The notes: generated from the letters alone by a model not told the origin. A stretch of DNA of 64,000 nucleotides from an uncultured Planctomycetota bacterium (GCA_963849325.1 CAWKHF010000014.1:1-64000); one strand, 5' to 3'. Positions 1,722 to 31,742 are shown, counted from the stretch's first letter. Translations and numbers: made by a program.

Positions 1722-2441
1722 ATGCCCATGACGCCGGTTACGCGCGAGTTCTTCCCCAGGGTCCGCAAAACGGTCGTCCCCCGCCCCGTGGTGAAGCTGG
1801 AGACGGACGTGCTGGGACAGAGCGGCTCGGTGCGCGCCGCGGCGGCCACCATCTACGGAGCCAACTGGCACCACGACTCGTTCCAGGACCTCATCGAAAT
1901 CTGGGACGCGGGTCCGGCGCTATGCTTCAAGGACGTCCTGCCGCGCAAGGACAAGTATGCCCGCGAGGGGCTTTATCTGCGATTGTCGCTGGCCTACCGG
2001 ACGACGGCGAACGCCTTCGCCAACATCCGCACCTTCTCCGGCAACCACGTCAACCTGCCCAACGCCCCCGAAGGCGCCATGTACGACGATCCGTACACGC
2101 GCTTCTTTGTCACCGACGACTGTACCCTCAACATCAATTCCATCTACCGCGAGGAGCGGCTGTGGTTGCAGCGCGTGGACTGGGAATGGGTCAGCCAGGA
2201 CACCATCTACGAGGATGAGTTGGCCTACCAGGAGCCGTACCAGGATCGGACCCGCGACGAGGTCGAGGCGCTGTACGCCGAGAAGAAGATGGACGATGAC
2301 AAGGTCAAGGAAATATTGCTCGACAAGATTTGCGGCGACACCACCTTCGCCAAGCGCTGTCTGCTGCTTTTGGGCGAGGACAGGCTGCTTCGCCAGGATC
2401 TCGTCGCCCTGCATGGGATGCTCAATCATGCCTCCGACTGA
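1722..2441 (+). CDS. hypothetical protein overlapping the glgB start
   Basis: GAGGAGG RBS, GC3-rich codons, 239 aa, no family recognised. Confidence 0.75.
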   Translation: MPMTPVTREFFPRVRKTVVPRPVVKLETDVLGQSGSVRAAAATIYGANWHHDSFQDLIEIWDAGPALCFKDVLPRKDKYAREGLYLRLSLAYRTTANAFANIRTFSGNHVNLPNAPEGAMYDDPYTRFFVTDDCTLNINSIYREERLWLQRVDWEWVSQDTIYEDELAYQEPYQDRTRDEVEALYAEKKMDDDKVKEILLDKICGDTTFAKRCLLLLGEDRLLRQDLVALHGMLNHASD

Positions 2442-4731: not shown

Positions 4732-6029
4732 ATGTCCATCGCTCCGGCCCAGACCAGCAGTGACCCTCGCGCCAGGGCCAGCCTGGCGTTTTTGCAATTC
4801 CTCTTCGGAGATTATCGGCCGCGCGATTTCGCGGTTCGCTTCTGGGACGGCAGTGGCTGGGATCCAGAGCCGGGACAGACGGCCCGGCTTACGCTGGTCT
4901 TCAAGCATCCGGGAGCGGTGCGGGCCATGTTCTGGCCGCCGCGCGGACTGAGCATCGCCGAGGCGTTCCTGTTCGACGATTACGACGTCGAAGGGGACAT
5001 CGAGTCGTTGTGGCTGCTGGTCAAGCACCTGGGCGAGGGGAGGACGTTCGGCCTCGTCGATAAGCTCCGCTTCCTCGGTCACGTGCTGCGGTTGCCGCGG
5101 GAGAGACGGCCGCGCGTCGGCGGGCCGCCGCGCGTTCGACTCAAGGGCGCAAGCACTCGGTGGAGCGCGACCGCGAGGCCGTCTCCTACCACTACAACGT
5201 GTCCAACAAGTTTTACGGCCTGTGGCTGGACCAGAATATGGTCTATACCTGCGCCTACTTCCACACACCCGAAGACAGCATCGACAAGGCGCAGGAACAA
5301 AAACTCGATCACGTCTGCCGCAAGCTGCGGCTGCGTCCGGGCGAGAAACTGCTGGACGTGGGATGCGGCTGGGGCGCGTTGTCCATCCATGCCGCCAAGC
5401 ATTACGGCGTCGAGGCGCTGGGCGTCACCATCAGTCAGCCGCAGGTCGATTTCGCCAACGAGCGCATTCGCCGCGAAGGCTTGACCGGCCGCTGCCGCGT
5501 CGAAAACCGCGATTATCGGCAGGTCGAGGGGATGTTCGACAAGATCGCCGCCATCGGCATCCTCGAACACGTCGGCGAGTCGATGTTTCCAACCTACTTC
5601 CAGTCGGCCTGGGACCGCCTCAAGCCGGGTGGCTCGTTCCTCAGCCACGGCATTGCGGTGCGCGGCGATCAGACACTGCCGAAAGGACCGACCTTCGCTC
5701 ACTGCTACGTCTTCCCCGATGGCGAGTTGATCCCCATCGGCCGGAACTTGACCTACGCCGAGCAGAGCGGCTTCGAGGTGCGCGACGTCGAGAACCTCCG
5801 CGATCACTATCACCTGACGCTGCTGCACTGGCTACGGCGATTGGAGGAGCACGCCGACGAGGTGCGGGCGCTTACCGACGATGTGACCTATCGCATTTAT
5901 CGCCTTTACCTGGGCATCTCGGCATTGCTGTATCGACTGGGCCGGGTCAATCTCTACCAGGCGCTTCTCGTCAAGTCGCCCAACGGTGAGATGCCGTTGC
6001 CGCTGACGCGGGCGGACTGGTACGCTTGA
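4732..6029 (+). CDS. cfa: cyclopropane-fatty-acyl-phospholipid synthase family methyltransferase (frameshift ~5150)
   Basis: HYNVSNKFY, MVYTCAYF, LDVGCGWG, EHVG, YVFPDGEL. Confidence 0.88.
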
Positions 6030-7530: not shown

Positions 7531-7923
7531 CTACGACAGTTCCTCTGGACGGGGCACCCTCACGTTACCGAGGAACCGCTCCTCCGACGCTCCGAGTTGG
7601 CGGTAGTTGGCACGTGCTTGGGTTAAACTCAGCGCCCCGTTGGGGCCGCCACGAACCACGTCGGCATCGTGATCGTCCTGGCCGTCATCTTCCCAGAAGC
7701 AGACCGGGCAGATGTCGTACCCGCCGCGTTCGTCGAGCGTCCGGAACCCGCAACAGGGGCACCGGAATGGGCCGGCCTCACTCTCGGCCGAGCGGATGGA
7801 GTTGCACGCTTGTTGCTCGACGTACCACTCGAACCACCGCTGGCGTCGGTTCAGTTCTTGCGGTGACGGCTCCATGTAACCTCTTGCCTCGCTTCGCCGA
7901 ACTTGTTCTTCGAGCATGCGCAC
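7531..7923 (-). CDS. CPCC-family cysteine-rich protein
   Basis: CPCCGFRTL, ICPVCFWEDDG, GPNGALSLTQARANY. Confidence 0.85.
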   Translation of the reverse strand: MRMLEEQVRRSEARGYMEPSPQELNRRQRWFEWYVEQQACNSIRSAESEAGPFRCPCCGFRTLDERGGYDICPVCFWEDDGQDDHDADVVRGGPNGALSLTQARANYRQLGASEERFLGNVRVPRPEELS

Positions 7924-8109
7924 CCTAATACCCCGCTTAGGTGCGCCCTAATACAGATAGCTCAAACCTAGGGCACCTCGCTGTCAAGCGAAAAATCCTC
8001 AACCTGTGCCGTTTTAATTTGACGATTTAATCGAGCCGATTGGAGGGACAATCGAAGGTTGCCCTCCTTCGCTTACGCTTCAAGCTCAGAGGCGTTAAGA
8101 ACGCAGGTA

Positions 8110-9667
8110 TCAGAATCGTTGCGAGCCGATCCGGTACGCCGATGCTAGGGCCAGACCCCACCAGAGCACCCCGAAGGGCAGGGCAAGCGGCAACTGTTGG
8201 CGCAGCGCCGGCAGGAAACCAGGGGCCAGTCCGAGCACGCCCACAAGGGCGAGCGCGGTCAGCACCAGGGCGAACGCGCCCGAGGGCGACGGAGCCGTGA
8301 TTGCCAGCCCCGCGCAGGACACCCACACCGATGACGACCGCGCACGGCCAGGCCAGCCCCAGGGAATGAATACCGAGTTGGGACGCCGCCAGCAGTAGCA
8401 GAATGAATGCGATCGCGGCGGCAGTCAGTCCGAGTGCCGTGCCTCTCAAGACCTGCCGGCACCGGGCGGATCGATCCGGCGCGGGGAGCGCAACGGACTC
8501 GGGGGCGCGTCCATCATGTCGCCCTTGCTCGACCAGGGACTGCAAAGCGGAGGCCATTCGCTCCTTCTGCTTTGGCGATGGGGGGGCGTGGACGTTGGGT
8601 TGGTAGTCGCGGTTAGCGTGCAGGTAGGCGATCATCTGCTGCTCGAAAGCCGGAGTGAAAGAGAGACCAAGCTGGTCGTAGACTCGCCGCATGGTCCCGA
8701 GTGGATCGGCCTGGAGATCCTGCAAGCGAATCTCGGCGAGGTCGCCCGCGGGGATCAGCGCGCGCGTCCGCCGATACTCCTCCTCGGTGGCGACGAACTC
8801 GCCGAGCACGTACTCCTCCAACTCCTCCTCTTCAAGAGGCGGCTGGAGTCCGCAGATGTCCGTCAGCTGGCGAAGCATGGCCACGTTGGAGCGGAAGACC
8901 TTATGGGGATGTCGCGAAATGTAGACGAACTTTACGCCCGTGGTGTTCCGGTACAGATCCAGCAAGGCCGCGATGCGCGCCGTGTGCGCCGGTGTTTTCA
9001 GGAGGACACGCCGTCCTCCGGCCTGCGGCGCCAGCTTGCGTACGAAGGCGAGCTGATAGAGTCGCCAGCGCCGGCGCTCGGCGGGGGTCAGGTCTTTCAG
9101 GTCGTGGAAGCGGTCGTAGAACGGGTGGGCCTGCGGAAGAACGATTCGTCCGGGTAGGGTCGAGGCCAAGACCCCGTTGTTGAGGGCGAAATCGTCCTCG
9201 GCCGGGACCAGGGGACCGAAGGCGACGTTGTCCTGCGGCCGGTTTCGCGGGAAGAACGGTAACACGAACCAGCGGAGTAGGGTCCACGTCAGCCACCATC
9301 CCTGCGGCGCGAACGCCTGCCCCCAGTGCGGCGCGTAAAGGTTCGGGTCGCAACTCAGCAGGTACTGTAACAGGGTTGTTCCCGATCGGTAATAACCTAA
9401 AATGATGACCGGACCAGGCCGCTGTTTCTCCCGCTTCGACAGCCGCAGGTAGAGGGCAGCGATTATCCGTTCCGGCAGCGTGACGAGGGTGAACAGGGAG
9501 GACAGCAAGAGAGCGAATGCCAGGCGCGGCCAGAAGCGTGGCGAGATCGTCACGCGCGGCCGGAACAGCAAACGAAACCACACGTCCAGCGGGGCGAAGC
9601 CCATGAAATGAACGTGGGGGAACGGGATCGATCCGAGAACGGATGGAGCCGGCCGCATGGTTGTCAT
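8110..9667 (-). CDS. PAPS-dependent sulfotransferase with C-terminal membrane segments (frameshift ~8280)
   Basis: PSB motif IILGYYRSGTTLLQ, LLKTPAHT, SRHP..VFRS, and a hydrophobic C-terminus. Confidence 0.85.
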
Positions 9668-9677
9668 TTCTTTCCGA

Positions 9678-9722
9678 GCCGCTTGCGGCTTAGCGCGAGG
9701 AGCACGCTAAGCCGCAAGCGGC
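9678..9722. repeat. REP-like palindrome family A (also 25078-25127; half copies 16344-16361, 24071-24089)
   Basis: GCCGCTTGCGGCTTAGCG ... CGCTAAGCCGCAAGCGGC. Confidence 0.8.
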
Positions 9723-11003
9723 GGTAGCCGACTCTTGAAAGCGCTCCATCAACTCCCGTAGCCGGGGCAAGCCGGCGAGGATGGCCGGCGATGCGGGTCC
9801 GAAGTCGAGCAGGCAGGCGATCTCCTGCACGCCGATGTCCACCAGCTTGCCCACCAACTCCACACAGTCGTCCGGCGTTCCCATGAGCGAACGCTGCCGC
9901 AGGAACTTCTCGAAGGCCCACCGGATCGCCTCGTCCAGCTGCGCCGGCGTCAGACGGTCCAGCGCGATGGGGACATTGCGGCTCTGGGCCAGCTTTTCCA
10001 GCAATTTCAGGTTCTTCTTGAGGTAATCGCAGTACGGCTCGTAGGCGTTGCGGCGCACGTCCTCGGGATCGTCGGCGAGGTAGGTGTGCAGGGTGACGGC
10101 GACGCGGCCGGCGTCGGGGTCCCAGCCGTGTTCGGCCCGCGCCCGGCGATAGAGGGCGACCTTCTCGGCCAGCTCTTCCACTCCCTGGTCGAACAGGTGG
10201 GTCAAGACGTTGGCGCCGATCTCGCCGGCCTGCTGGAAACTGCGCGGGCTGCCCGCCGCGGTGATCCACAGAGGAAGCCGCTTCTGCACGGGCGTCGGAT
10301 ACGTGCGGACGCGGATCTTCTGGCCGCAGCCGTCGGTCGCCTCGATGGACTGGCCGCTCCAGAGCTGCTCGACCACCCGGATGCTGTCGTACATCGTTTC
10401 ATAGCGGCGGGCGTAGCGGGCGGGATGCAGAGCGAAGTCTTCCGCGTTCCATCCCGGCGCGAACGACAACTCGATGCGGCCCTTCGAGAGGTTATCGACC
10501 ACGGCCCACTCCTCCGCCACGCGGAGAGGATCGTGCAAGGGCAGGACGACACTGCCGGCGCGCAGGCGAATCCGTCGCGTCTCACGGGCCAGGGCGGCGT
10601 GCAGCACGGCCGGGTTGGGGTAGAGACTGCCCATTGCCGTGAAGTGGCGCTCCGGCAGCCAGACGGCCGAGAAGCCGGCGGCGTCCGCATACCGCGCCGC
10701 CTCGATCACCAACTCATACTTCTCCGCCGCGGCCTCGCCCTCGTCACCGCCGAAGAAGAGCAGGCCGAACGCGAGGGTCTTACGGGTCGGTCGAGGAGAG
10801 GCAATCGTCGGGGCCGTCCCTTGCCGCCGGACGTACTCCAGACAATCCTCGCGGGTCGAGGCGGGCAGCACCTCGCGCCAGCCTGCCGGGATCGGCTTGT
10901 GGGCCGGCCACAAGCTCTGACGGCCGGACTCGCTGCGCAGCACCCGAAATCGGGAGGATTCATTCGTCAACACGGCATCCGTCATAACACTCTCCGCGCT
11001 CAT
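9690..11003 (-). CDS. MbtH-like domain fused to luciferase-like flavin monooxygenase (LLM, natural-product type)
   Basis: QSLWPAHKPIPAGW...CLEYV (MbtH), then FGLLFF, WLPERHF, LYPNPAV, LHDPLRVAEEWAVVDNLSKGR. ATGA overlap with the upstream gene. Confidence 0.85.
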   Translation of the reverse strand: MSAESVMTDAVLTNESSRFRVLRSESGRQSLWPAHKPIPAGWREVLPASTREDCLEYVRRQGTAPTIASPRPTRKTLAFGLLFFGGDEGEAAAEKYELVIEAARYADAAGFSAVWLPERHFTAMGSLYPNPAVLHAALARETRRIRLRAGSVVLPLHDPLRVAEEWAVVDNLSKGRIELSFAPGWNAEDFALHPARYARRYETMYDSIRVVEQLWSGQSIEATDGCGQKIRVRTYPTPVQKRLPLWITAAGSPRSFQQAGEIGANVLTHLFDQGVEELAEKVALYRRARAEHGWDPDAGRVAVTLHTYLADDPEDVRRNAYEPYCDYLKKNLKLLEKLAQSRNVPIALDRLTPAQLDEAIRWAFEKFLRQRSLMGTPDDCVELVGKLVDIGVQEIACLLDFGPASPAILAGLPRLRELMERFQESATAACGLACSSR

Positions 11004-14000
11004 GCGTAATACAGGGCGCACCACACCTGCAAGCCGGCTGCGACTTCGATCAACAAGACCGGAGCGCCGGCCGTGAGCCGGCCTTCCTGGCGGACCTTCT
11101 GAAACGCGAAGGCCAGGGACGACGTGAAGTAATCGCGCTCCGCGCCGACGTTGACCACCTTTTCGATCGACATCCCCAGACCCTCGGCGATGACGTTCTC
11201 CCAGCCTCCCCGGCCGCTGCGGCGGCACCAGCAGGCCAACGTCCGCCGGCGAAAGCGACTCGCGGGCAAGGAACTCGCGCACCACCCGGCACACGCATTC
11301 GACCTCCCGGTCTTCCAGAGCCGCGTCCCGATGGTGGAAGACAGCGGGCTTGTCTTCATGGACGCCGGTGGCGCTGACGATGGCGTCGAGGTGTTCGGGG
11401 AAGGCGCGGAAGCCGAAGGCCGCGAACCCTTCGCTGCCGCCGGACTCTTCGAGGACCAGCGCCGACGCCGCCTCGGCACGGGCAGCATGGCCCTCGGGCC
11501 GCAACTCGCGGCAAGGCTCGACCTCGGAGGCGATCACGAGGGCCCGCGAAAACTTCCGCGCCGCCATCAACTCGGCGGAGAGGAGGCAGGCGGTCAGCGT
11601 CCCGCCCGCGCCGTTGAGGACGTCGAAGGCCAGCGTCCGCCGTTCGCCGAGTTGCTTGTCGTCGTGGTTGATGGCCAGCTCGCCGGCGGCGATGCTGGCG
11701 ACGGACGGCTCGGCGAGAAACTCACTGCGGTACACGCCGGTGTGGATCACGACGTCGATCTCGTCGCGCGGCCGGGCCGAGCGTTCCAGGCAAGCCTCGC
11801 CGGCGCGGCGGACCAGGTCGATGGTCTCCGCCGGCCCGTCCGCCGACCGATCCACGGTGGCGATGCTTTCCAGACGCACGCGCCGCTGACAGTGGAAGTG
11901 CCGTAGCGGCTCGGCCGGCCGCGCCGGCGCTGCCTCTCGCGGCCGCGGCGGTTGTCGCAGTCGCTCCGGCAGATCATCGAAGGTGTACAGAGCGGTGCCG
12001 ACGGTCTGGCCCGAACCGCTCACCGCGAAGACGAGCCGTTCTCCGGCCGCGAAGCGCCCGGCCTGGATCGCCTCGTAGACGGCCAGGAAGTGCGTGTTGG
12101 TGGCGGTGTTGCCGCGCTCGGCGACGTTGTAGAGCGTGTTGCCGCGATGACAGAACGGCTGACCCAGGGCGCGATTGATCTCCTGCACCGCGCCGTCCAG
12201 CGTCGTCTCCGAAGTCTGGTGGATGACCAGCCCCTTGACCGTATCGAGGTCCCAGCGCCGGCGCCGCAACATCTCGGCGGCATGGCCGACGGCTTGCTTG
12301 ATGGTGACGACCGTGCTCGTCACCGAATCGGTGTGCATGACGGGTCCGCTGCCCGGTACGGCAGACAGCTTGGCCACGCACAGGTCATGGTATTTGCCCA
12401 GCGTGTATAGCTCGACCTCCTGGAAGCCGACGTCGGCGGTCGGCGCCCGGCCCAGCAACAGCGCCACCCCGGAATCGCCGAGGGTCAGGCACGGCAAACG
12501 CGGGTCCATGAAGCCCGCGATCTCCTGCTGGGCCGTCCGCATTAGGTGAGTGATGTATTCGCCGCTGACGATCAGGACGCGCCGGACGACGCCCTGGCGA
12601 AGAAGCGTGTCGGCCAGTAGGATCGCCGTGAAGGTGCCGGCGCAGGCGTTGCTGAGGTCGAAGGCCACGGCGTTGACCAGGCCGAAGCGGCGAGCGATGC
12701 GGGCGGCGGTCGCCGGCTCCAGCGAGAAACGATACGGGCCGTCATAGCGAGAGATGTTGCAGCAGATCAGCAAATCGATTTCGTCGGCGCGCACACGCCG
12801 CTCGCCGCAGACACTCGGCGGCGGCCTTCTCGGCCAGGTCGAGAGAGAATTCCGTATCGCCGGCGACGCGGCGGCTGCGGATACCGGTCAGTCGCTCCAG
12901 CGGGAACTCGATCTTGTTGCGGCAGTCGCGCAATACCTGTTCGGTCGTAACCGACTTTTCCGGTAGATAAACGCCGATACTCTCTACCAGAGCACCGGCT
13001 CGCTGGGTGTCGGAAATAGGGACCAGGGGCTCGGAAGCAGGGACGAGGGACGAGGGACGAGGGACTAGGGAAGGAACTGGCTCCCTGTCTTCCCTATTCC
13101 CTAGTCCCTGGTCCCTAGTCCCTGTTTCGAGGGCCGCGGCCAGTTCGGCGATGGTCTGATGGCGGAACAGCATTTCCGGCGTCACGGACAAGCCTTGCTC
13201 GCGGGCCAAGGCCGACACCTCCAGCGTCTGCGTCGAGGCACCGCCCAGCTCGAAGAAATGATCGTGGATGCCGACGCGCTCCACTTTCAAGACACGCGAC
13301 CAGATGCGCGCCAGTTGATGTTCCAACTCCATCCGTGGGGCACCGGAAGACGTTTCGGCCTCTCCGTTCGATGCGCCCACCGTCGCCGGATCGGGTAATC
13401 GTGTTCGGTCCAGCTTGCCCGTGGTGCCCAGGGGGAAGGCGTCGAGCGTCACGACGGCGGCCGGCAACATGCAGCGCGGCAGTCGTTCGCGGAGATGGGC
13501 GCGGACGCCCGGTAGGGAGAAAGCGTTCCCCTTGCGCGGCACCACGTAAGCGGCCAGGCGCGGCGCGCTGCCGTTGTCTTTCCACACGACCACCGCCGCG
13601 TCGAGGACGTCAGGGTGACGCCGAAGGACTTCCTGAATCTCCTCCAGCTCGATGCGATGTCCGCGGATTTTCACCTGATGATCGGCACGGCCGAGGAATT
13701 CCAACTCGCCCTCCGCCGTCCAGCGGACCACGTCGCCGCTGCGGTACAGGACCGCCTCGTCGGCCTGGTCGAACGGATTGGGGAGGAAGCGCTCGGCGGA
13801 CAGGTCGGGCCGGTTAAGATAGCCCAGGGCCACGCCTGGCCCAGCGAGGTACAACTCTCCGGCCACACCGACCGGCACGGGCCGAAGATCGCCGTCCAGC
13901 ACATAGACACGAGCATTGGCGATCGGCCGGCCGATGGTCGGCGGTCGTCCTCCGGGCACACATTCGGCGAGGGTGGCCCAGACCGTCACCTCGGTCGGGC

Positions 14001-16315
14001 CATAGGCGTTGAAGAAGCGCCGACCGGGCGCCCAGGTACAGACCAACTCGGCCGAGCACGCTTCGCCCGCCACAATCAGCGTCCGCAGGGCCGGCAGAGG
14101 TTCGGCCGGCACCATCACCAGGACTGAGGGCGGCAAGGTGACGTTGGTGATTCGTTCCTGGCGCAGCATCTCCCATAACGGCCGACCCGGCAGGAGGGCG
14201 GTTTGGCTGCCCAGCACCAGCGTCGCCCCGGACGCTAGGGCCATCGCCAGCTCGAAGACAGAGGCATCGAAACTGAACGAGGCGAACTGGAGCACGCGAT
14301 CCGCGGGGCCGGTTGCGAAGGACTTTTGCTGTGCCGCCCACAGGTTACACAGACCACGATGGCGCAGCACCACGCCCTTGGGCTGCGCCGGTCGAGCCGG
14401 ACGTGTAAATAAGGTAAGCTCGCTCCTCTGCCGACAACGGCAGACCGAGGTCCGTATCGCCTCGTCCCTGGATCTCCGTCTCGGCTCGGTCGAGCAGCAC
14501 GACCGGCAGCGGCAGGGGCGATTCGGAAGCCAGGGTGATCGCCGCCGCCGGGCGGGCGTCGGCGAGGACACCCTCGCGTCTCTTGCCGGGGTCCGACGGG
14601 TCGAGGAACAGAAACGCCGCTCCCGCCTTCCACACCGCCAGCACCGACACGATCAGATCCGGGCCGCGCGGCAAGCTGATCGCCACCGTGTCTCCCGGCC
14701 GCACGCCCATCGTCCGCAGGTGACGCGCCAGCCGATTCGCCCGCCGATTCAACTCGTCATAGGAGAGCGTGACGCCCTCGAAGGACACGGCCGGCGCCGC
14801 GGGTGTCTTCTTGACCTGCTGCTCGAACAGTTCGTGGAAGCAACCCGAGGGATAAGGGGTCTCCGTCCGATTCCAGTCCCCCAGGATTTGTTGTTTCGCG
14901 CCGGCCGACAGAACCTCCGCCTCGCTCAGCGGCGCGTCGGGAGAGGCGGTCAGCGATTCCAGCAGCGTATCGAAGTGCCCCACCCAGCGCCGGATCGTGG
15001 TGGCGTCGAACAGGTCCGAATTGTAGCGGAAGCTGGCGACGAGCTTCTCGCCGAACTCGAAAACGATGAGTGTCAGATCGAACGGAGCGCCGCGCTGTTC
15101 CATCAGCAGCGTCTCCACGGGCAACCCTTGTCCGGCCGTCTCACCGGAGGCAGCGAGGTCGCGCGGCTTGTCCCAGACGAACATCGCCTGGAAGATCGGC
15201 GGACGGGCCGGATCGCGTTTCACGTGCAGTTGTTTGACCAGCAGACCGAACGGGTAAGCCGAATGCTCCAGGGTCTGGTGTACCTGGTCGCGCGTCTCTT
15301 CCAGCAGCCGGCGGAAAGAGTGATCCGAAGCGAACGAGGTCCGCACGACTACCTGGTTGAGGAAGTAGCCGACCACCCGCTCCCATTCGGAGCGTTCGCG
15401 GCCGGCCACCGGAGTGCCGACCAGGATGTCGTGCTGGCCGCCGAGCCGGTGCAGCAGAAGCTGGAAAACGGCCAGCAGGGCCATGAAGCGCGTGGCGCCG
15501 TGTTCGTCGGCCAGAGAGCGCAGCTTGCGGACGACCTCGGCATTCAAGGTCCAGGAATGGGCGGTGCCGTTGTAGGTCTGGACGGGCGGACGGGGCCGAT
15601 CCGTCGGTAGTTCCAGCGCCGGCAGCTCGCCGGCAAGGAGGTTATGCCAGTATCGTTGCGCCTGCCGGCCACGCTCGCTGTACGCCTGCACGGTCTCCCA
15701 GCGGACGAAATCGGCGAATCGCGCCGACGTTGGCGGCAGTCGTGCGGCTCGGCCGGCACGCAGGTCGAGGTAAAGCTGCCGCAGTTCCTGGATGAGCAGG
15801 TCGGCGGACCACAGGTCGGCGATGATGTGATGGAACGTCATCAGGAGCACGAATTCCGCCGGCGCGCGGCGAAACAGCTCGATGCGCAGGCACGGCGCCC
15901 GGCCGAGGTCGAACGGTACGTCCGCCTGCCGGCGGGCCGTTTCTATCAGGCGCTCCTCGCTCCACGACGAGGCATCGGTCACGGGGATGTCGAGGGGAAC
16001 TTCCCTCTCCACCTGCTGCATCGGTTTGTGATCGCGCGCGAGGAAGCGGGTCCGCAGGGCGGGATGGCGATCCACCAAAGCCCGGCAAGCGCGGCGGAGG
16101 ACGGCCGCGTCAACCGCGGCGGGGATGCGGGCGGCGTAGAGGAAGTTGTAGGCGGGACTGGCCGGCGCCAACTGGTGCAAAAACCACAACGAGGCCTGGC
16201 CATGCGAGAGCGGCACCGGATCCTCGGAGCCGCCCGGCTGCAGGCCGAGCAGGTGTTTCACCAGTTCCTGCTTTTCCTCGACAGGCAAGGCGTGCAGTAT
16301 CGATCGATCGATCAT
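11000..16315 (-). CDS. NRPS C-A-PCP fused to two OleA/KAS III-like domains (frameshifts ~14390, ~12795, ~11200)
   Basis: C: HHIIADLWS. A: YTSGSTG..KG, FDASV, NAYGPTE, YRSGD, GRADHQVKIRGHRIEL, GKLDR. PCP: FFELGGAST. Thiolase-fold domains: DLSNACAG/HQTS/GNT and FDVLNGAGG. Confidence 0.85.
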
Positions 16316-16361
16316 CGCTTGTCCTCTCCGTTCCGTGCTGCTCCGCAAAGCCGCAAGCGGC

Positions 16362-19300
16362 TTACTCCAAAAGCGATTCCAGAAGTCCGTCGAGTTTTTC
16401 CTCGGGAAGCTGGTCTACGTTCTCCGAGGTAAGGCCCGCCGGCGGTCGCGGTCCCGTCGGGCGCTCGTCGGGCTTTTCGCTCAGCGCCGCCGCCGCCCGG
16501 TCCCGAATCTGGCCCAGGCTCAGCCCACGGAGGAAATCGACCACGGACAGGGACAGCCCCAGGTGGTCCTCGATCCGGTTGCGCAGCTGAATGCCCGTCA
16601 GGGAATCGAGTCCGAATGCCTGCAACGGTTTGTCCACGTCGGACGCGGAGACGTCCAGGCCGAGGACGTTGCGCAGCTGTCGCCGTAGGTACTCCTCAAT
16701 CAGCCGGCGCCGCTCCGAGGGAGGGGCCGACAGGATCGCCTTGCGGTCGAGGTGCCTCGTCTTTTCCGTGCCGTTGACGCTGGCAAGCTCCGGCGCCGGT
16801 GTTCCCGGAACGTAGCGCTGGCCGCCCCGATAAGCCACCACCCGCTGCTCGTCGGAGTGGCGGAGGGTCTGATACAAGCATTCCACCTGTTCGGCGGCGG
16901 ATTGATTCGGATCGAGGTCGATGAGACCCATCGATCCGTCGGCTCGCGGAGGGAAGAGCGATTGCCACTCCGCGGAAGACACCTCCGCTGTCTCCCTCCC
17001 CGGGAGGCAAGGAGCCGCGCCGCGCGTGACGACCCACGTCCCGGACAGTGAGTCGTTCGTGCAGACACGGGAAGGGTCATGCTGCCGGCAACTGCAAGGA
17101 GGTCTGGCGAGTGCGCCTGCCCCGTCCGTGAAGTCCACCAGGTAGATCGCCGCTCTCGGGTCGGAGGGCCGGATTGCCTCGGTGATGCAGGAATCGCCAG
17201 GGGCGAGACGAACAACCGTGCCTCCATCCGCCTTCAACCTCGCGGCCAGGGCGTCCGCCAGGTTCAGCCGGTCCCCGGCCAGGATCCAGGTCGTCGAGGT
17301 CCGGGCCGGCCCCGTGGACCCGTTTCCGATGGGACTGATACCGTTCTTTCGGAACGTGGGCTTCGCTGCTGCTGACAGGCTGGTGTCATTGCGAGCCAGG
17401 ATGACTACCTGGTCGGGGTCGGGCAATTGCGCATCGGCGGCGGGAAGGGCCGCGACGTTCCGCAAAACCTTCGTCGGCAAGCAGGCGTCCCCAGTCCGCG
17501 GGCGGCAGCAACGGGTATTGGGGCCGCAGCTCCAGGTCGGCGAATTTCCACCATCCCTCGGTCAGGCCGAAGATAAGGTCCAGCAAGCGCCGCGGCCCCG
17601 TCCCTTCGAGCAGGACCAGGACACCGCCGGGAGCCAGCAGACGACGCGCCGTGCGGACGCTGCTTCGCAGGTCCGGGGTGGCGTGCAGCACGTTGGCTGC
17701 CAGGACCACGTCGAATTGGCCGTCCGCGAAGCCCTGCGGTCCCGGAGCTTTTTCCAGGTTGAACGTGCGGTACTGGACGAAGGGGAACGCCTCGAACTTG
17801 GCGGAGGCCTGGGCGACGAACAGCCGCGATACGTCGGTGAAGACGTACTCGACCCGATCCGGCGGCAGGGCCGGCAGGACGTGCGCCGTGGTGCCGCCCG
17901 TGCCGCCGCCGACCTCCAGAATGTGGACGGGGCGATGGTCGGCGAGGCGCTCGATCAGGCGAGACAGCGAGCCGACCACCAGGTCGTTATAGAAGCGCGC
18001 CACCGGAGATTCCCGATACAGCCGCTCCGTCCAGGAGGCGGCCTCGTCGCCGAACAGAACGTCGAGCGGATCGGCCTCGCCGCGCAGGACGCGGTGCATC
18101 CGCGTGGCGCAGCGATGGGCCAACCGCAAGTCCGCCTCGAAAGTCGGATGACGGCCGAGCAGGTCGCGGTGCCAATCGCCAACGTCCCCCGCAGCGGGCA
18201 TGCGGATCACGCGCCAGCCGGTCTCCGTGCGGGCGAGCCAGCCGTCCTCCGCCGCCATCTGCAACAGCCGGCCGAGAAGCCGGTGGTAAGAGGGAATCAC
18301 TTTCAGCCGTCCGGCCAGTTCGTCGTCGCACACCTCGTCGCCGGGTCGCGGGGTCCAGCCGAGACGGCGCAGCGTGTCCACGACGTAGGCACCGGCCAAG
18401 CGATCAAATTCCTCTCTCAAGGGTATGAATTGTTCGATCCGATGCTTGGCTCGCAGCGGGGGAACGAGCGCAGCGGCGTCGGCGAGAGTCTCGAACCCCG
18501 TTGCTCCGCGGGGCAAGTGCTGGCGCCAGTTGGAACAGGGTCTCCAGTGGAGGCTTTCGCCAGTCCCACGGGAAGGTTTGGCCACGGCGGCAACAGGCGG
18601 CCGAGTGGGGGCGATGGCATCGACCCAGTAACGGAAGCGCTCGAAGGGGTAGGTCGGCAAATCGACGCGCGGGCGATGGGGCCGGCCATCCATCTGCTCC
18701 CAGCTCACGTTTGCTCCGTCCGCGTACAGACGGCCAAGGGCCGCGAGCATCTCTGCCTGATCGCTGCCTCCTCGCCGTAGCGACGACCGCCAGACTGTAC
18801 CCTCCATCGCCTCCAGGCAGGCCGGGCCGAGCCGAGAGAGGACGGCGTCGGGTCCGACCTCGACGAAGTGCGTGATACCGGCCTTGTGGAGCGTGCGGAT
18901 GCCGGCGGCGAACTGCACCGGCCGGCGGGCGTGCTCCGCCCAGTATTCCGGCGCGGGGATGGCGTCGAAAAAGGCGCCGGTGACGTTGGAGACGAGGGGG
19001 ATGGACGGCGGGCGGTGCGACATTCGCGCGGCCAACTCGCGCAGTCCCGGCAACGTCGGCTCGATCAGGGACGAATGGAAGGCGCGGCGGACGTGCAGCA
19101 GGCGGGTCTCGACTCCCTGGGCCGCTAATTCCTCGCGCAACGCCGTCGCCTCCGCGGCGTATCCGGCGACGACGATGCTGTCCGGGCCGTTGACCGCGGC
19201 GACGTCCGAGACGTCCGCCCCATCGCCCGACATGATTTCGTACCACATCCAGCGGCGCGAAGCACACCAGCATGGCGCCTTCGGGACAGTCCTGCATGAG

Positions 19301-22300
19301 CCGCCCGCGCCGGACGATCAGCTCCAGGGCGCTCTCCAGCGGCAACACGCCGGCCACGCATGCCGCCACGTACTCTCCGACGCTGTGGCCCAGCAGCGCG
19401 GCCGGCTGGACGCCCCATGCCCGCCACGTCTGCGCCAGGCGCGTATTCCACGGCGAAGAGGGCCGGCTGGGAGACATCGGTCTGCTCCAACCGTTCCACG
19501 TCGCGCAGAAGGTCCGGCAGGTTTTTCATGCCGAGGGCATCGAGGATGTCGGCGCAGCGATCCAGCGTGCGGCGATAGGTGAGGCACGATTCGTACAGCT
19601 CGCGCCCCATGCCGGCGTACTGCGCGCCCTGGCCCGTGAACAGGAACGCCACCCGGCCCGTCCAGCTCGCGCGCGGCCTGTCCTTCCTGGCAGGCGGGGT
19701 GATGGCCCGTCTCGGCCCAGGCGGCGAGGGCCGTGGACAAATCCTGAACCCGTGGCGCCGATCACGGCGAGCCGATACTCGAAGTGACATCGTTCTCGGC
19801 TGGCGGCGGCGCAAACGTCCTCCACCGCGACGTCGGGGTGGTCGCGCAGCCATCCGGCGAAACGGCGCGCCAGCTCGCGCAGCGCCGTCTTACTTTTGGC
19901 CGACAGCGGCAGAAGATGACAAGGTGACAAGGTGACAAGGTGACAAGGTGAACGGAGAACTGCCGCGGTTGCGGCCTCTCTGTTTCTCGTGTGTCCCTGG
20001 CTCTCTTGCGACAAGGTCACCTTGTCACCTTGTCTCCTTGTCACCTTGTCATCTTCGGGGGCTTGAGCGACGAGGACGTGAGCGTTGGTGCCGCCGAAGC
20101 CAAAGGAACTGACGGCGGCCAGCCGCGGACGTTGCTCGTTGGGCCAGGGGGTTAGCTCGCGGGGAATGTGGAAGCGCGTGCCCGCGAGTCCGATGCGCGG
20201 GTTGAGATTTTCCAGGTGCAGGTGCGGGGCGATCTGGCCGTGATGGACCTGCAAGACGGCCTTGATCAGACCGGCGATGCCCGCCGCCGCTTCCAGATGG
20301 CCGAGGTTCGTCTTGACCGAAGACAGGGCGCAGGGCACGGTCGCGGAACCCAGGGCGGCTTGCAGAGCGTCGAACTCGATCGGGTCGCCCAGAGAGGTGC
20401 CGGTGCCGTGGGCCTCGATGCAAGACACGTCGTCGGGGGAACGGCCGGCGAGCCGGAGCACGCGACGGATTAGCTCGGTCTGCCGTGCGCCGTTGGGGGC
20501 GGTGATGCCGTTGCTCTTGCCGTCCTGATTGACGGCCGACGCCTCCACAACCGCGAGGATGCGATCGCCGTCGCGCACGGCCGCCGACAGCGGCTTGAGG
20601 ACGACGACACCGCAGCCCTCGCCGCGGACGTAACCGTCGGCGGCGGCGTCGAACGTCTTGCACAGGCCGGCCGACGACAACATGCCGCCGTGCGACAGTA
20701 CCTCGGTCAGATCCGGCGTGAGGATCAGATTGACGCCGCCCACCAGGGCCAACTCGCACTCGCCCAGCCGCAAGCTCTGACAGGCCAGGTGGATCGCCAC
20801 CAGCGCCGAAGAGCAGGCCGTATCGACGGTCACGCTCGGGCCGTGCAGGTCGAGATGATAGGACAGGCGATGCGCGGCCATGCTGGCCGCATTGCCGACA
20901 CCCGCGTAACCGTCGGAGGCGCAGCCGTGCGCCAGCAGCAGCCGACTGTAATCGTTTGTCGAGGCACCCACGAACACGCCCACGGGACGGCCGGCCAGGC
21001 CGTCCGCGGGCAAGCCGGCGTGCTCCAGCGCCTCCCAGGCCGTTTCCAGCAGCAAACGATGTTGCGGATCGATAAAGACGGCTTCTCGGGGAGCGATGCC
21101 GAAAAACGGAGCGTCGAAACAGGCGACGTCCGCCAGGTATCCGCCTCGCGTCGTGGCCGCGCCCTCGGCGGCGCGCTCCCAGCGACCTTCGGGCAACTCG
21201 TCAATCACACAGCGGCCATCTCGGAAGACCTGCCAGACCTCGTCCGGCCCGTGGGCCGTGGGGAAACGACAGCCGATGCCGACGACCGCGATCGACTGGC
21301 GCCTCGCCTCGCAGGCAGGAGCCTCCAGCTTCACGTCAGCCACGGAGTCGCGGGCCAGGACGCCGACGAGGGCGCCGACGGTCGGAGCGCTGTACAACAG
21401 AGTCGGCGATAGGGGACGGCCCAGCCATTCTTGCAGGTCGGAAGCCAGGGCCGCCAGCGCCAGGGAACCCATGCCATAGGCGGACCAGGGCTTGTCCGCG
21501 TCGATCTGATCGGGCGGCAGTTTCAAGAGCCGGGCCATCCGAGCCACGAGCCAGTCGCGCAGCGCCTCGGAAGAAGTGGCGAGTGGCGAGTGGCGAGTGG
21601 CGAGGGAAGAAGAAGCCTCTTCACTAGCCACTGACCACTGGCCACTAGCCACTTCTTCCGAGGCACGTTCGATAGCGTTGAGTTCTCCGTCTCGGAAGCG
21701 ACGGGCACATTCCTGGCGCTGCACTTTGCCGCTAGAAGCCCGCGGGATCGAGCCGACCTTGACCAGCAGCAAGTGGTGCAACTCCAACTCGAACAACTCG
21801 GCGAGGCGTTCGCGGATGCGGGCGAATAACCCCTCGCCTCCGCCGGGCTTGTAATCGCGCGCCACCTCGAACACGAGCACCAGTTCGGTGCCGGACTCTC
21901 CCTCGACCGCGAAGGAGGCGCCGGTCTGTCCGCCCAGTTCGGGACAGGCGTCCGCGGCCGCCTCCTCCAGGTCGTGCGGGTAGAAGTTACGGCCCCGGCA
22001 GATGATCAGGTCCTTGCACCGGCCGCTGATGAAAAGCTCGCCTTCGTGGAAGAAGCCCATGTCGCCGGTGCGCAGGAAGGAGAGTTCCGGGTCTGAAGGA
22101 CACCGAGCCTGAAACGTCTGCGCCGATTCTTCCGGCCGATCCCAGTAACCGCGGCGCGACGCTGGGACCGGACACCCAGATTTCTCCGATTCGCCCCTCG
22201 GAAAGCGGTTCGGCGCTGGCCGGATCGACGATGCGCACGGTCAGGTCCGGCAACGGCCGACCGCAGCCGACCATCGGCTGTCCGTCGCCTTCCAGCTCGA

Positions 22301-23385
22301 CTCGTTTCTCGCCCAGGGCCGACCGCGAGAACGAGCGGACGATCGGAGGCGCGGTCCGGTCGCCGCCCGTCACCATGAGCGTCGCCTCGGCCAGACCGTA
22401 GCAGGGGAAGAAGGTCTCGCGGCGGAAGCCATACGGGGCGAAGACCTCGGCGAAGCGGTCCAGCGCTTCCGCGGCCACCGGCTCGGCGCCGACGTAGGCC
22501 ACCTTCCAGCAGCTCAGGTCCAGACCCTGACATTTCTCCGGCGTCATGCGCTGGACGCAGTGGCGGAAGGCGAAGGTCGGCCCGCCGCTGACGTAGGCCC
22601 GCCGCGCGCTGATCGTCCGCAGCCAGAACATCGGCTCCTGAACGAAAGCGGCTGGCGGAAGGACCGTCATGGGCAGGCCGGTGAAGACTGTCTGCAACAG
22701 GTTGCCGATCAGCCCCATGTCGTGAAAAGCCGGCAGCCAACACACGGTGTCCGTCTGGGGGGTCAACCCCAGGATTTCCCGCATACGGGTCAGGTTGTGG
22801 AGCAAGGCGGCGTGGGTCAGCATCACGCCCTTGGGCAGCCCGGTCGAACCGGAGGTGTACTGGAGGACGGCCAGGTCGTCGCGTCCGATGCTCGGCACGG
22901 GACACGTCCCGGCGTCGCTCTCCGCGATCGCGGAGGTGTCGAGCCAGTCGAGGGCTTGCAGCCGAGGCACTCGCGCCGTCAGCCGCCCCAGGTCGCGGAG
23001 GGTTTTCGTGTTCGTCAGGGCCAGGACGGACCCCGAATTCTCGGCCACGCTTTGCAGGCGCACGTCCGAGCGGTTGGCCCGCGGCGGGTAGAGGGGAACG
23101 GCGATCACGCCGGCATACAGACAGCCGAACAGGCCGACCAGGAAATCCAGACCCGGAGGGTAGCAGAGCAACGCCCTCTGCCCGGCCCGGCCTGCGGAGC
23201 ACGGAGGCGACGGCACGGGCTTGCCGGTCGAGCTGGCGGAAGGAGAGGCGGACCTCCTCGGCGCGGCCGTCCGCGAGGAAGGCATAGCCGTGGACGCTGC
23301 CTTCTTCGGCCCGAGCCTGGAGCGAATGAATCAGGCTTTCGTTGGTCGAGCCGTTTATGAGGGCGATGCGCGACATAGCAATCAT
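16362..23385 (-). CDS. type I PKS: FAAL-ACP-KS-AT-MT-(KR remnant)-ACP (several frameshifts)
   Basis: [119 protein letters not shown]. Confidence 0.88.
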
Positions 23386-26143: not shown

Positions 26144-26338
26144 TGTTCTTCTCCACCTAAGTTCCTCCGCGGCGCGGCTAAACGGATTTGGAGAGTTGTA
26201 ACGCCTGACTTGGATGGGCAAGGTGGAAAAACGCTCCGGCCTCTCTGGTAACGCGAACGGGGACAATTTTATGATGGATTGGACAGCCATTCGCGCTTCG
26301 GTCCCCCGACCCGTAACCGAGAAGAGAGCCTTTCGCCA

Positions 26339-28482
26339 ATGTCCCAGCCCACGCGGAACAGCCTCGAACTCTGTTCGTCCGTCGAACCGCCTGACACCCT
26401 CTTCCGTCTGGCGCGTCATCGCGCCGGGGAGCACCCGGACGTTCGCGGTTACACCTTCCTCGCCGACGGCGAGACGGAAGAGCAGATCCTGACCTACGGC
26501 GACCTGGACGCGCGGGCGCGGGCGATCGCCGCCCGCATTCAGTCCGTCTGCCGTCCGGGCGAACACGTCCTGCTGCTGTACGGCCCGGGCCTGGATTACA
26601 TCGTCGCCCTGTTCGCCTGCCAGTACGCCGGCGTCGTCCCTGTCCCCGCCTATCCGCCGGATCCCCTGCGAGCGGCGCGGACGCTGTCGCGGCTGCAGGC
26701 CATCGTGACCGACTGCGGAGCGAGCCTGGCGCTGGGCAGCGACGAACACCTCGGCTGGCTCGGCGGCGCCCTGGCCGGCGATTTGGGGCTACGGCTGGCG
26801 CTCTCGACGGAACGATGGCCGGAGTGGACGGGATTGCCGTGGACCGCGCCGGAAACGCACCCCGACCAGGTCGCCCTGTTGCAGTACACGTCCGGCTCGA
26901 CGGCCACGCCGCGCGGCGTCATGGTGACGCACCGCAACTTGTGGTTTCAATTTCAGGGGATGCAGGTCGCCGATAGCGACGACTCGGCCGGCGTGAGCTG
27001 GCTGCCGCTGTATCACGACCTGGGCCTGATCGGCGGGGCCTTGACGCCGATCTACTTCCGTCGTCCAGTGACGCTGATGTCGCCGTTAGCCTTCGTCCAG
27101 CGACCTCTGCGCTGGCTGCATGCCATCTCGCGCTACCCGCGCTCCCATCACGGGCGCCCCCAACTTCGCCTTGGACCTGTGCGTGAGTAAGTTCTCTCCC
27201 ACCGAGGCGGAAGGGCCTCGACCTGTCTTGCCTGCGCGTCCTCCTGACCGGGGCCGAGCCAGTGCGGTCCGATACGCTCGACCGCTTCACCGCAACCTTC
27301 GCTCCGTATGGCCTCTCCTCGAGGGTTTGGTGTCCCTGTTTTGGCCTGGCGGAAGCGACCCTCGGCGTGACGGCCGCCACCGACGCCGCGCAGGTGCGAC
27401 GACTGGACTTCGCGCTCCGCGAACTGGAACGCAACCGAGCCGTGCCCGTAACGGGCACCGGCGAGCCATGTCGTCGCCTGGTTGGCTGCGGCCGGCCCCT
27501 GGAAGGCAGCGAGGTACTCGTCGTCGATCCGCTCCGCCGCACGGCCCTGCCGGATGGACAGGTCGGCGAGATTTGGGTACACGGACCCAACGTGGCACGC
27601 GGCTACTGGAACAAGCCGGAGGAGACCGAAGCTCTCTTCCACGCCCGCCTGGCCGACGACGGCGAACGGGGGCCATACCTGCGAACCGGCGACCTGGGCT
27701 TTTTCCACGACGGGCAACTGTACCTGACGGGACGGATGAAAGAGACGATGGTGTTCTGGGGCCGCAATGTCTACCCTCAGGACGTGGAGAGGACGGTCGG
27801 CTCCTGTCATCCGTCCTTGAAGCAAAACGGCGGCGCCGCCTTCGCCGTCGAGGTGGACGGCCGGGAGCAGTTGGCCGTGGTGCAGGAGGTCGTTCGCCCC
27901 GGCAAGGTCGATCTCAACGCCGTTGCCGACGCCGTCCGCCAGGCGGTCCAGGCGGAGCACCTCGTTCCTCTGCATGTCCTCGTCCTCATCAAGCCGGGCA
28001 CCCTGCCCAAGACCTCCAGCGGCAAGACGCAGCGCAACCTGGTGCGCGAGCGGTTCCTGGCCGGCGAACTGGCCGTGGTACGACGGTGGCACTCCGCGGT
28101 TGAGGGAGAGGCGGCGCCCGCCGCGATAGAAGGGCGAGCGTTCAGCCGCGAGGAGATTCGCTCCTGGCTGGTGGCTCGCGTCGCCCGGCACTGCCAGGTG
28201 GCCGAGAGCGAGATCGATCCCGGCCTGGCCATCAACAGCTACGTCCTGGATTCGGTCAGCGCCGTTACGATCGCCACGGAGCTTCAGGACTGGCTGGGCC
28301 GAACCATCTCGCCGACGGTACTCTACGATAGCCCTTCGCTCTCGGTCCTGGCCGGACGACTCGCCGACCCGCCCACGCAAGTCCCGGTGGTTGCGGTCGA
28401 GAAGCTGACACCCGGCGAGCTGGACGACGTCCTGATGCGGTTGCTCGGGGATTCGGGCGAGCCGCTATTTCCCAACCACTAG
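26339..28482 (+). CDS. stand-alone fatty acyl-AMP ligase-ACP didomain (frameshifts ~27135, ~27215)
   Basis: [57 protein letters not shown]. Confidence 0.88.
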
Positions 28483-28536: not shown

Positions 28537-28683
28537 AGTTGGAACCACGCTACCCGCCAGCCCCGGCCATCCTTACACTGAAGAGGAACGATTTCCTCAC
28601 AAGCCCCCAGCGCAAGCGACGGACGGAAAAACCCATCACCTGGGCTGCGGGCTACTATAATTTCGCATCCACGGATTCACTCG

Positions 28684-29445
28684 ATGACCGGCGACAACGC
28701 CCCCTGGCTTTCCCCTTCCTGCCTGATCTACTGCGATCATCTGCAGCGCCGCTACCCCGATGGCGAGGTGATGGCCGTGCGCGACATCACGCTGCGCATC
28801 GATCGCGGCGAGTACGTCGCCATCATGGGGCCCAGCGGCAGCGGCAAATCGACGCTCTTGAACCTCATCGCCGGCCTGGATCGGCCCACGGCGGGGGAGG
28901 TCTACTTCGAGGGCGAAGCGCTCTCCCGCGCCGGCTCGCGCAGCCGACTGCGCATCGACAAGATCGGCTTCGTGTTTCAGTCGTTCAACCTGCTGGCGAC
29001 GCTGACCGCCTGCGAGAACGTGCAGGTGCCGATGTTCGAGGGGCCGCTGCCGGGACGGGCACGCCGCCGCAAGGCCATCGAGTTGCTCGGCCTGGTCGGC
29101 CTGGGGCACCGGCAGAATCATTTGCCGAGCCAGTTGTCCGGCGGCGAGAAGCAGCGCGTGGCCGTGGCGAGGGCGCTGGCCAACGATCCCCGCGCCCTTC
29201 TGGCCGACGAACCGACCGGCAACCTCGACAGCGCCAGCGGCGAGGAAGTGCTGGCCCTGTTCGACCGGCTGCAAGCGGAGCGGAAGGTCACGCCGATCGT
29301 CGTCACGCACAGCGACGAGGTAGCCCGACGGGCGCGGCGGCTGATCCGCCTCCGCGACGGACGGATCGTCGAGGATTGCCGAACCGGCGAAGCGGCGGAC
29401 GAGCGCTCACCCGCGGCGCGGCCTCAGAGCCAGCCCCGATCATGA
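28684..29445 (+). CDS. ABC transporter ATP-binding protein (LolD/MacB type)
   Basis: GPSGSGKST, LSGGEKQRVAVARAL, LLADEPTGNLD, VVTH. Confidence 0.92.
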   Translation: MTGDNAPWLSPSCLIYCDHLQRRYPDGEVMAVRDITLRIDRGEYVAIMGPSGSGKSTLLNLIAGLDRPTAGEVYFEGEALSRAGSRSRLRIDKIGFVFQSFNLLATLTACENVQVPMFEGPLPGRARRRKAIELLGLVGLGHRQNHLPSQLSGGEKQRVAVARALANDPRALLADEPTGNLDSASGEEVLALFDRLQAERKVTPIVVTHSDEVARRARRLIRLRDGRIVEDCRTGEAADERSPAARPQSQPRS

Positions 29446-30449: not shown

Positions 30450-30484
30450 GATGAACTCCGCGTCCTGATAGGGAGTCTTGAGCC

Positions 30485-31616: not shown

Positions 31617-31620
31617 ACTC

Positions 31621-31742
31621 AAAAGAGCCTCACGCAAAGGCGCAAAGAACGCAAAGGTAAAGAAATAGAAGGACAAAAACGGACTTCCCTTTCGTATCTC
31701 ATCTTTCTTTGCGTTCTTTGCGCCTTTGCGTGAGGCTCTTTT
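31621..31742. repeat. MITE-like inverted repeat
   Basis: AAAAGAGCCTCACGCAAAGGCGCAAAGAACGCAAAG ... perfect reverse complement. Confidence 0.8.

Follow-up and report, generated by a model that had tools for sequence, protein, structure and literature searches.

We analysed a 64,000-nucleotide stretch of DNA from an uncultured Planctomycetota bacterium (CAWKHF010000014.1:1-64000; hereafter the window), in which a nonribosomal peptide synthetase (NRPS) gene on the minus strand (16315-11000) ends in two consecutive domains that have the fold of β-ketoacyl-ACP synthase III (KAS III; ACP, acyl carrier protein). Pfam families matched across the gene comprise Condensation, AMP-binding, AMP-binding_C, PP-binding, ACP_syn_III, and ACP_syn_III_C, and together with translation they place a condensation-adenylation-peptidyl carrier protein (C-A-PCP) module at 16315-13129, followed by the two KAS III-fold domains a and b (jointly, the didomain). 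The C domain (14882..16225) matches Condensation at E 4.2e-109 over residues 42-489 of the open reading frame (ORF) at 14345-16348, the A domain spans 13414..14827, and the PCP, or thiolation, domain lies at 13129..13317 (PP-binding, E 5.4e-11). Their core motifs—HHIIAD, the Asp of FDAS, GKLDR, and the GGAS serine of the PCP—occur in order, such that C, A, and PCP have the canonical arrangement of an NRPS elongation or termination module. Domain a, the putative catalytic half, occupies 11961..12993 (ACP_syn_III and ACP_syn_III_C), and the degenerate domain b occupies 11003..11885 (ACP_syn_III_C on the last frame piece). As the original prediction had proposed, no thioesterase (TE) or reductase (R) domain was found at the end of the NRPS, and the module terminates in the two KAS III domains instead. 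Chain release decides the product of an NRPS; the domains known to carry it out are thioesterases, reductases, terminal condensation domains, and Dieckmann cyclases, along with one fungal ketosynthase (KS).

At 11000-11002 the gene stops, in overlap with the start codon (ATG, 11003) of a separate gene encoding an MbtH-like domain fused to a luciferase-like monooxygenase (LLM). We rejected the ORF at 9690-12794 as a single KAS-to-LLM protein, as it is a frame artefact running across this stop/start overlap.

All motifs previously quoted for the two terminal domains were recovered by translation of the minus strand. In domain a, TGIRSRR lies in one frame and LEPATA, DLSNAC, IHQTS, GNT, and SGSG in the next, with the codons of the likely active-site residues at 12717-12719 (Glu), 12642-12644 (Cys), 12219-12221 (His), and 12108-12110 (Asn). 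Domain b contains AEPSVAS (Glu at 11709-11711) and FDVLNGAGG; its Cys, His, and Asn are all gone.

Among 41 related genomes searched, 38 gave matches, 37 of them with no more than a FabH-like similarity (~30%), and a single genome from the same family and another genus (G016) proved close. It carries two loci: in the first, an uninterrupted ORF of 1784 amino acids encodes C-A-PCP-KAS-KAS and is followed by the MbtH-LLM gene, as in the window, and in the second, the system is split into a C-A-PCP protein (1111 amino acids) and a free didomain (688 amino acids). The original prediction had assigned the window gene a single ORF, but alignment with the G016 orthologue by tblastn shows four colinear pieces, spread over three frames and joined at ~14375-14385, ~12797-12808, and ~11217-11223. 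At the first of these, the AMP-binding profile runs from position 1 to 176 in one frame and from 176 to 384 in the next, where AMP-binding_C also lies, and the corresponding tblastn pieces join at G016 residues 652-655. The breaks thus fall within the A domain, domain a, and domain b; none lies between the PCP and the KAS domains, where the window has no true stop and the G016 ORF is continuous.

The DNA at all three breaks is G+C-rich and without long homopolymers, the translated pieces contain no in-frame stops and no lost catalytic motifs, and they are 56-59% identical to the intact G016 orthologue, colinear over its full length. Elsewhere in the same genome (G000:C1:334967-343005), rpoB is broken into four or more frame pieces and rpoC into three or four. 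That these two genes, which are essential, are split in the same way points to indel errors of the assembly, not gene decay, as the source of the NRPS frame shifts. A decaying pseudogene with three genuine frame shifts, for which one could cite the occurrence of three breaks within 5.3 kb and away from long homopolymers, is highly improbable given the fragmented rpoB and rpoC, an assembly of 14 contigs with only 84.69% completeness, the retention of catalytic motifs in stop-free pieces, and end-to-end identity with an intact orthologue. Indel errors are frequent across the assembly, and any broken gene of this genome should be read accordingly.

The architecture extends well beyond these two genomes. 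In a collection of 5.8 billion proteins, the didomain had 957 matches at E <= 1e-10 in the near-length class (8000 candidates scored) and 507 matches at E <= 1e-50 in the longer class (7999 scored); among the 120 of these 507 that were listed, nearly all have a length of ~1800 amino acids and show C, A, and PCP in addition to the two KAS Pfam families, under generic names only. A search of 1.84 billion representatives with a domain-b profile gave 473 clusters at 50% identity (E <= 1e-30), and all but about five of its best 150 matches end at the protein C-terminus. About 30 of those 150 are short proteins of 250-300 amino acids holding domain b alone, which may be gene fragments, frame-shift products, or true stand-alone partners resembling LstB. 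Finally, in contigs drawn from one genome per species, 546 stretches fit the search patterns and 476 encode a relative.

From the best 80 of these 476 relatives (some counts below are over 81 loci), we examined how the domains are distributed among reading frames. Frames of at least 1700 amino acids were found in 54 loci (36 Actinomycetota, 18 Chloroflexota), and two further loci from Mycobacterium sp. metagenome-assembled genomes (MAGs; L042 and L049) have frames of more than 4000 amino acids that run off the locus, for a total of 56 of 80 loci, from Mycobacterium/Mycolicibacter and Ktedonobacteria, with the full C-A-PCP-KAS-KAS order in one frame. Those two long frames also include a polyketide synthase (PKS), so that the whole line can be a single protein. 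Free-standing didomains of 675-756 amino acids occur in 12 loci (nine Bacteroidota, two Lentisphaerota, and G016). Another six frames run off the contig end at less than 1700 amino acids, so that their class is not assignable, and six are of intermediate length; for four of the latter, the MAG name suggests a long-read bin affected in the way the window is. Of the 80 loci, 64 have C, A, and PCP immediately upstream in the same orientation, and 77 have a stop codon straight after the didomain, which together identify the didomain as the terminal element of the line. The NRPS-KAS-KAS architecture is widespread in bacteria and apparently unstudied.

We next consider the catalytic residues, which were compared in an alignment of 123 family members and in a second alignment of 58 sequences that included E. 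coli FabH, three FabH-type proteins of related genomes, and two OleA proteins identified by NCBIfam in the canonical oleABCD clusters of relatives G013 and G011. Columns follow E. coli FabH numbering, which was checked at F87, C112, H244, and N274. The Cys-His-Asn triad is complete in domain a (26/26 at each position), as it is in both OleA and all four FabH-type sequences, and is absent from domain b (0/26), where the C112 column holds Gly (5), Ala (13), or Ser (8), the H244 column Pro (25) or Gln (1), and the N274 column Asp in all 26 (Leu by hidden Markov model, HMM, alignment). The F87 column, which corresponds to the trans-acting Glu117 of OleA, instead holds Glu in every sequence of both domains (26/26 each) and in both OleA proteins, compared with F, L, L, and F in the FabH-type proteins. 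This Glu and the following Pro are invariant in both halves, and the domain-b Glu is also present in at least 93% of the 123 family sequences. The earlier claim that domain b has lost its Cys and shows no His or Asn motif while keeping the Glu motif is thereby supported.

Measured against the OleA motif [LIVYF]-E-P-X-X-[VIL], domain a of the window reads LEPATA, identical to the G013 OleA and ending in A at the last position, and domain b reads AEPSVA, which departs from the motif at its first and last positions and keeps the E-P core. Domain a additionally shares DLSNAC with the planctomycete OleA and an insertion after the SGE strand that FabH does not have. Domain b has an invariant ExENN motif of its own.

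Despite its lost residues, domain b retains the KAS III fold over its full length: its profile matches FabH from end to end at E 1.4e-21 and OleA, in the N-terminal half, at 2.4e-15. For the free G016 didomain (688 residues), AlphaFold2 gave a model with a mean predicted local distance difference test (pLDDT) score of 87.1 and a predicted template modelling (pTM) score of 0.90, such that the two halves are packed confidently in the model. Each half matches KAS III structures in the PDB at a target-normalised template modelling (TM) score of ~0.8-0.9 by Foldseek, which did not separate FabH, PqsD, BioZ, and OleA (all at E 1e-27 to 1e-24). Neither the PDB sequence matches nor the Foldseek matches included a solved chain spanning both halves.

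Family models were scored with the free G016 didomain, which reached 173.8 bits on the FabH subfamily NF006829 (cut-off 249), 153.4 bits on the FabH model TIGR00747 (cut-off 292.1), and 167.6 bits on the OleA-type model NF006720 (cut-off 285), the last compared with 468.9 and 484.5 bits for the true OleA of G013 and G011; the fused G016 protein scored 137.9 bits on NF006720. In a maximum-likelihood (ML) tree of the 58 sequences, domain a, domain b, OleA, and FabH-type proteins form separate, fully supported groups, so that neither domain clusters inside the FabH group as represented by few references; branches are long, particularly that of domain b, and the reference set is small. By NCBIfam cut-offs and by this tree, both domains would be placed outside FabH and outside OleA, and the original description of the pair as OleA-like is qualified to that extent: domain a falls below the OleA cut-off and as near to the FabH models as to OleA, yet below the FabH cut-offs too. 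Identical phylum-level groups recur in both subtrees, that of domain a and that of domain b, suggesting that the two were fused or paired once, long ago.

Upstream of the NRPS on the minus strand lies a PKS line headed by a fatty acyl-AMP ligase (FAAL)-type adenylation piece (21990..23330; AMP-binding, E 9.7e-58). It continues with the acyl carrier protein (ACP) and KS of a PKS module (19529..22240; PP-binding, ketoacyl-synt, and Ketoacyl-synt_C), the C-terminal part of an acyltransferase (AT) with a C-methyltransferase (17389..19317; Acyl_transf_1 and Methyltransf_12), and a stretch of about 285 residues with no family match followed by the ACP of the module (16365..17561; PP-binding only, residues 290-352). 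Between the C-methyltransferase and this ACP, no Pfam match to a ketoreductase (KR) or dehydratase (DH) was found, whereas PKS modules in other clades do have KR, or DH and KR. FAAL homologues head the PKS in related loci; the window FAAL (FAAL1) has matches in 58 of 81, some of which are NRPS A domains.

Downstream, the MbtH-like domain and LLM lie at 9690..11003 on the minus strand (MbtH and Bac_luciferase), the latter a flavin mononucleotide (FMN)-dependent enzyme of the MupA/Atu3671 family that scores 465.5 bits on TIGR04020 (cut-off 244.45). LLM genes accompany 26 of the 80 related loci (18 Chloroflexota, 8 Bacteroidota). Beyond the head of the PKS, a second FAAL-ACP in two frame pieces (26252..28479, plus strand; AMP-binding, AMP-dom_DIP2-like, and PP-binding) is a candidate donor of a second acyl chain, and it is followed by genes assigned by Pfam to an ATP-binding cassette (ABC) ATPase (28582-29442, plus), an extended short-chain dehydrogenase/reductase (SDR; 29427-30491, minus), and a MacB-type permease (30482-31657, plus). 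Among the 81 related loci, 26 have a homologue of the window SDR and 25 have one of the ABC ATPase, the majority being from Actinomycetota. There, they adjoin the NRPS-didomain gene, with the SDR directly after it, suggesting a common tailoring and export set. The window SDR scored below cut-off on HpnA, SdmB, OleD, and thioester-reductase models (OleD, 69 bits vs 580).

Three related loci were annotated fully. In Mycobacterium sp. SMC-14, FAAL-ACP-KS-AT-KR-ACP precedes the NRPS-didomain and an extended SDR follows it; in Ktedonobacter racemifer DSM 44963 (L030), a PKS with embedded LLM, DH, and KR precedes the NRPS-didomain and a type II thioesterase follows; and the Pontibacter locus encodes a FAAL, an LLM, and a PKS divergent from the free didomain, a cytochrome P450, and a phosphopantetheinyl transferase. 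At L030, a gene for a TnpB-family RNA-guided endonuclease (below cut-off) lies at 14962-16311, 3 kb downstream of the cluster.

Selectivity of the A domains also varies. Pocket codes were read by alignment in 62 readable loci at what we take to be the anchor positions of Stachelhaus et al., with code meanings presumed likewise. Forty-nine of the 62, from Ktedonobacteria and Mycobacterium/Mycolicibacter, have a serine-type code (DVWH.SLIDK or DPWH.SLIDK), L020 a glycine-type code (DILQLGLIWK), and the split G016 locus a tyrosine-type code (DASTVAAVCK), and the window code, DAFTIAAVWK, is nearest to the aromatic ones. Non-serine readings include Tyr in L014 and an Asn/Asp-like code in L032, and six Mycobacterium-type loci share the unfamiliar code DAAH[ST]GEITK. 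As amino acid and acyl reduction state vary by clade and the didomain is conserved, the chemistry of the didomain should address the thioester itself.

Which chemistry this might be is best approached through known systems. PMC8180931 describes Glu117 of OleA, within the [LIVYF]-E-P motif, as entering the active site of the partner subunit and being needed for Claisen condensation. LstAB (also NltAB), which acts in lipstatin biosynthesis, is a FabH-like dimer of diverged KAS III folds that performs a non-decarboxylative condensation, with C128/H271/N305 carried by LstA and with activity abolished by LstB E60A, according to a review (PMC12141560). Both precedents invoked in the original prediction, the trans-acting Glu of OleA and the division of roles between LstA and LstB, thus agree with those sources. 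The didomain resembles LstAB, as described there, in having the triad in one half only and a conserved Glu in the other, where that of LstB is essential. It differs in that its halves form one polypeptide, usually fused to C-A-PCP, and in that its presumed substrate is a carrier-bound N-acyl amino acid, whereas LstAB uses two acyl-CoAs; LstB was compared by its published description. With OleA, domain a shares the E-P Glu column, DLSNAC/LEPATA, the post-SGE insertion, and the triad, although OleA is a homodimer with two active sites, whereas the didomain has one site, belongs to a separate clade, and scores far below the true OleA of its relatives. No OleB-like or OleC-like gene was found near the NRPS by Pfam annotation of the window, in further distinction from the lipstatin and OleA systems. 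The same genome does have an ole-type locus elsewhere (G000:C7:398936-403372) with an OleD-like reductase (457 bits, cut-off 580); a KAS III match lies 3.3 kb upstream, and G013 and G011 have complete oleABCD-like clusters.

We suggest the following scheme for the window. A FAAL would activate a fatty acid, KS-AT-cMT-ACP (cMT, C-methyltransferase) would extend it once, and the C domain would join the resulting acyl chain to the PCP-held amino acid, giving an N-acyl-aminoacyl thioester. The terminal KAS III halves may fold as a covalently linked pseudo-heterodimer with the geometry of a thiolase dimer, in which domain a would be the sole working active site (Cys-His-Asn) and domain b its catalytically dead counterpart, which would complete the dimer and, if homology with OleA and LstAB is a guide, place its invariant Glu in the domain-a site to act as general base. 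The domain-a Cys could be loaded with a second acyl thioester (CoA or ACP), which would then undergo Claisen condensation with the PCP-bound N-acyl-aminoacyl thioester, freeing the PCP and yielding a β-keto product—either a 2-alkyl-3-oxo-4-acylamino acid or the decarboxylated acylamino ketone. Tailoring by the LLM, a sulfotransferase, and possibly the nearby SDR might follow, with export by the MacB-type pump. A complete site beside a dead partner that keeps the E-P Glu, matching OleA and LstAB, favours off-loading of the N-acyl-aminoacyl chain by such a non-decarboxylative Claisen condensation, which we regard as the best-supported mechanism, albeit tentatively and at slightly less than an even chance. 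Genomic context in its favour comprises the SDR, which has a sub-cut-off score on the OleD model and is placed immediately after the NRPS in Actinomycetota and close by in the window, and the second FAAL-ACP of the window.

Several observations weigh against this mechanism or the novelty attached to it. The domain-a profile matches solved FabH better than OleA (E 3.2e-32 vs 4.9e-19), the didomain scores on the FabH-subfamily and OleA-type models are about equal and both below cut-off, and in the tree, domain a, OleA, and FabH meet in a three-way split of no resolved order (100 SH-aLRT, the Shimodaira-Hasegawa-like approximate likelihood ratio test, for each; two OleA and four FabH-type references). 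For the SDR, HpnA is a better-scoring model than OleD, and the second FAAL-ACP is not conserved in the neighbourhood of related genes. Fusion is not essential, as the 12 loci with a free-standing didomain demonstrate. The Glu of domain a is invariant even though it would face the dead domain b, and thus Glu conservation may be partly structural. His and Asn are the residues that FabH uses for malonyl decarboxylation, and domain a keeps both; OleA does too, however, and their presence does not discriminate between the two.

A precedent for release by a thiolase fold likewise weakens the statement that no characterised NRPS is known to end in this way. According to PMC4640141, the fungal tenuazonic acid synthetase TAS1 has the order C-A-PCP-KS, and its KS performs the releasing cyclisation, so that an NRPS module there too has a C-terminal thiolase-fold condensing domain as its only release device, forming a C-C bond. 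A full-text literature search with little coverage of subscription journals returned no description of KAS III domains fused to an NRPS or terminating one. TAS1 also has a single fungal KS near those of type I PKS, whereas the bacterial proteins studied here have two KAS III-type domains, one of them degenerate, that match ACP_syn_III/ACP_syn_III_C and not ketoacyl-synt. An asymmetric KAS III pair thus has precedent in LstAB and C-A-PCP-KS release in TAS1, and it is the fused combination that is apparently undescribed.

A serious, if less likely, rival to non-decarboxylative condensation is a FabH-like decarboxylative extension, in which the chain would move to the domain-a Cys and be condensed with malonyl-ACP or malonyl-CoA, the 4-acylamino-3-oxoacyl thioester then cyclising to an N-acyl tetramate or pyrrolinone, hydrolysing, or priming fatty acid synthesis, with domain b in a structural role only. 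The invariant triad of domain a is what such an enzyme would have, FabH enzymes give the best sequence, profile, and fold matches, including those in the PDB, and the FabH-subfamily model gives the top NCBIfam score. Yet the didomain lies below every FabH cut-off, is fused to a dead copy and an NRPS module, and has an invariant Glu in both halves at the column where all four FabH-type proteins have F or L. Retention of precisely this Glu by the dead partner parallels LstAB as described in PMC12141560, and the annotated loci have no dedicated malonyl carrier or AT downstream of the NRPS.

PqsBC, the quinolone signal synthase, is likewise a FabH-like heterodimer of one catalytic and one non-catalytic subunit, in which PqsC is not known to have the Asn. 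PqsC is among the PDB matches, but at 8.7e-15 compared with 3.2e-32 for FabH, and domain a keeps its Asn.

An intramolecular Claisen (Dieckmann) cyclisation, which would give a 3-acyl tetramic acid from a β-ketoacyl-aminoacyl thioester with no second substrate, appears improbable. It would follow the example of the TAS1 KS as described in PMC4640141, and would suit both a Glu base acting on an acidic C2 and a window PKS module in which the missing KR and DH matches mean that the β-keto group could persist. Against it, upstream PKS modules of Mycobacterium sp. (L090), Ktedonobacter (L030), and Pontibacter (L073) contain KR or DH and KR, and would thus remove the β-keto group, with the didomain conserved nonetheless; in the window itself, the C-methyltransferase would crowd C2. 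Acyl transfer to an alcohol, amine, or water with no C-C bond formed, in the manner of the KAS III-like acyltransferases CerJ and ChlB3, is a comparably poor prospect: both are among the weak PDB matches, and the type II thioesterase after the Ktedonobacter gene indicates that hydrolysis steps exist in some clusters, but CerJ (5.8e-05) and ChlB3 (0.0011) match far more weakly than condensing enzymes do, and the full condensing triad and OleA-type Glu are invariant.

Should non-decarboxylative Claisen release prove correct, a fused asymmetric KAS III pair would add a C-C-forming step to the release devices of NRPSs and could attach a further lipid chain to an N-acyl amino acid, and the didomain would offer a natural single-chain model of the trans-Glu mechanism of LstAB and OleA. 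Hundreds of species in six or more phyla have the architecture, among them cultured strains of Ktedonobacter, Dictyobacter, Pontibacter, and non-tuberculous Mycobacterium/Mycolicibacter, and it is annotated under generic names only, which points to an unrecognised class of products, probably lipid-like, in cultivable hosts. A more elaborate reading, improbable as a whole, would combine these elements into a new and widespread NRPS ending, with a fused thiolase of LstAB type condensing the N-acyl amino acid on its carrier head-to-head with a second fatty acyl chain. In the serine versions (49/62 loci), decarboxylation of the β-keto acid and reduction by the adjacent SDR might then produce an N-acyl-2-amino-1,3-diol—a ceramide-like lipid made without the pyridoxal phosphate (PLP) enzyme serine palmitoyltransferase—and in the planctomycete window, an aromatic-amino-acid analogue might be formed and subsequently oxygenated and sulfated.

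The sulfotransferase gene (8027..9667, minus strand) encodes a possible tailoring enzyme that matches Sulfotransfer_3 at E 2.7e-23 over residues 86-339. None of the 81 related loci contains a homologue, and we therefore rejected it as a conserved core member. The Pfam match does not reach the last ~150 residues of its ORF, which are rich in Arg, Gly, and Pro and probably reflect a further frame shift near the 3' end. Beyond it are unrelated neighbours: a Cys_rich_CPCC protein (7534-7947), a methyltransferase of the mycolic-acid-cyclopropane-synthase family (5064-6026), and a GlgB-like branching enzyme (1795-4473).

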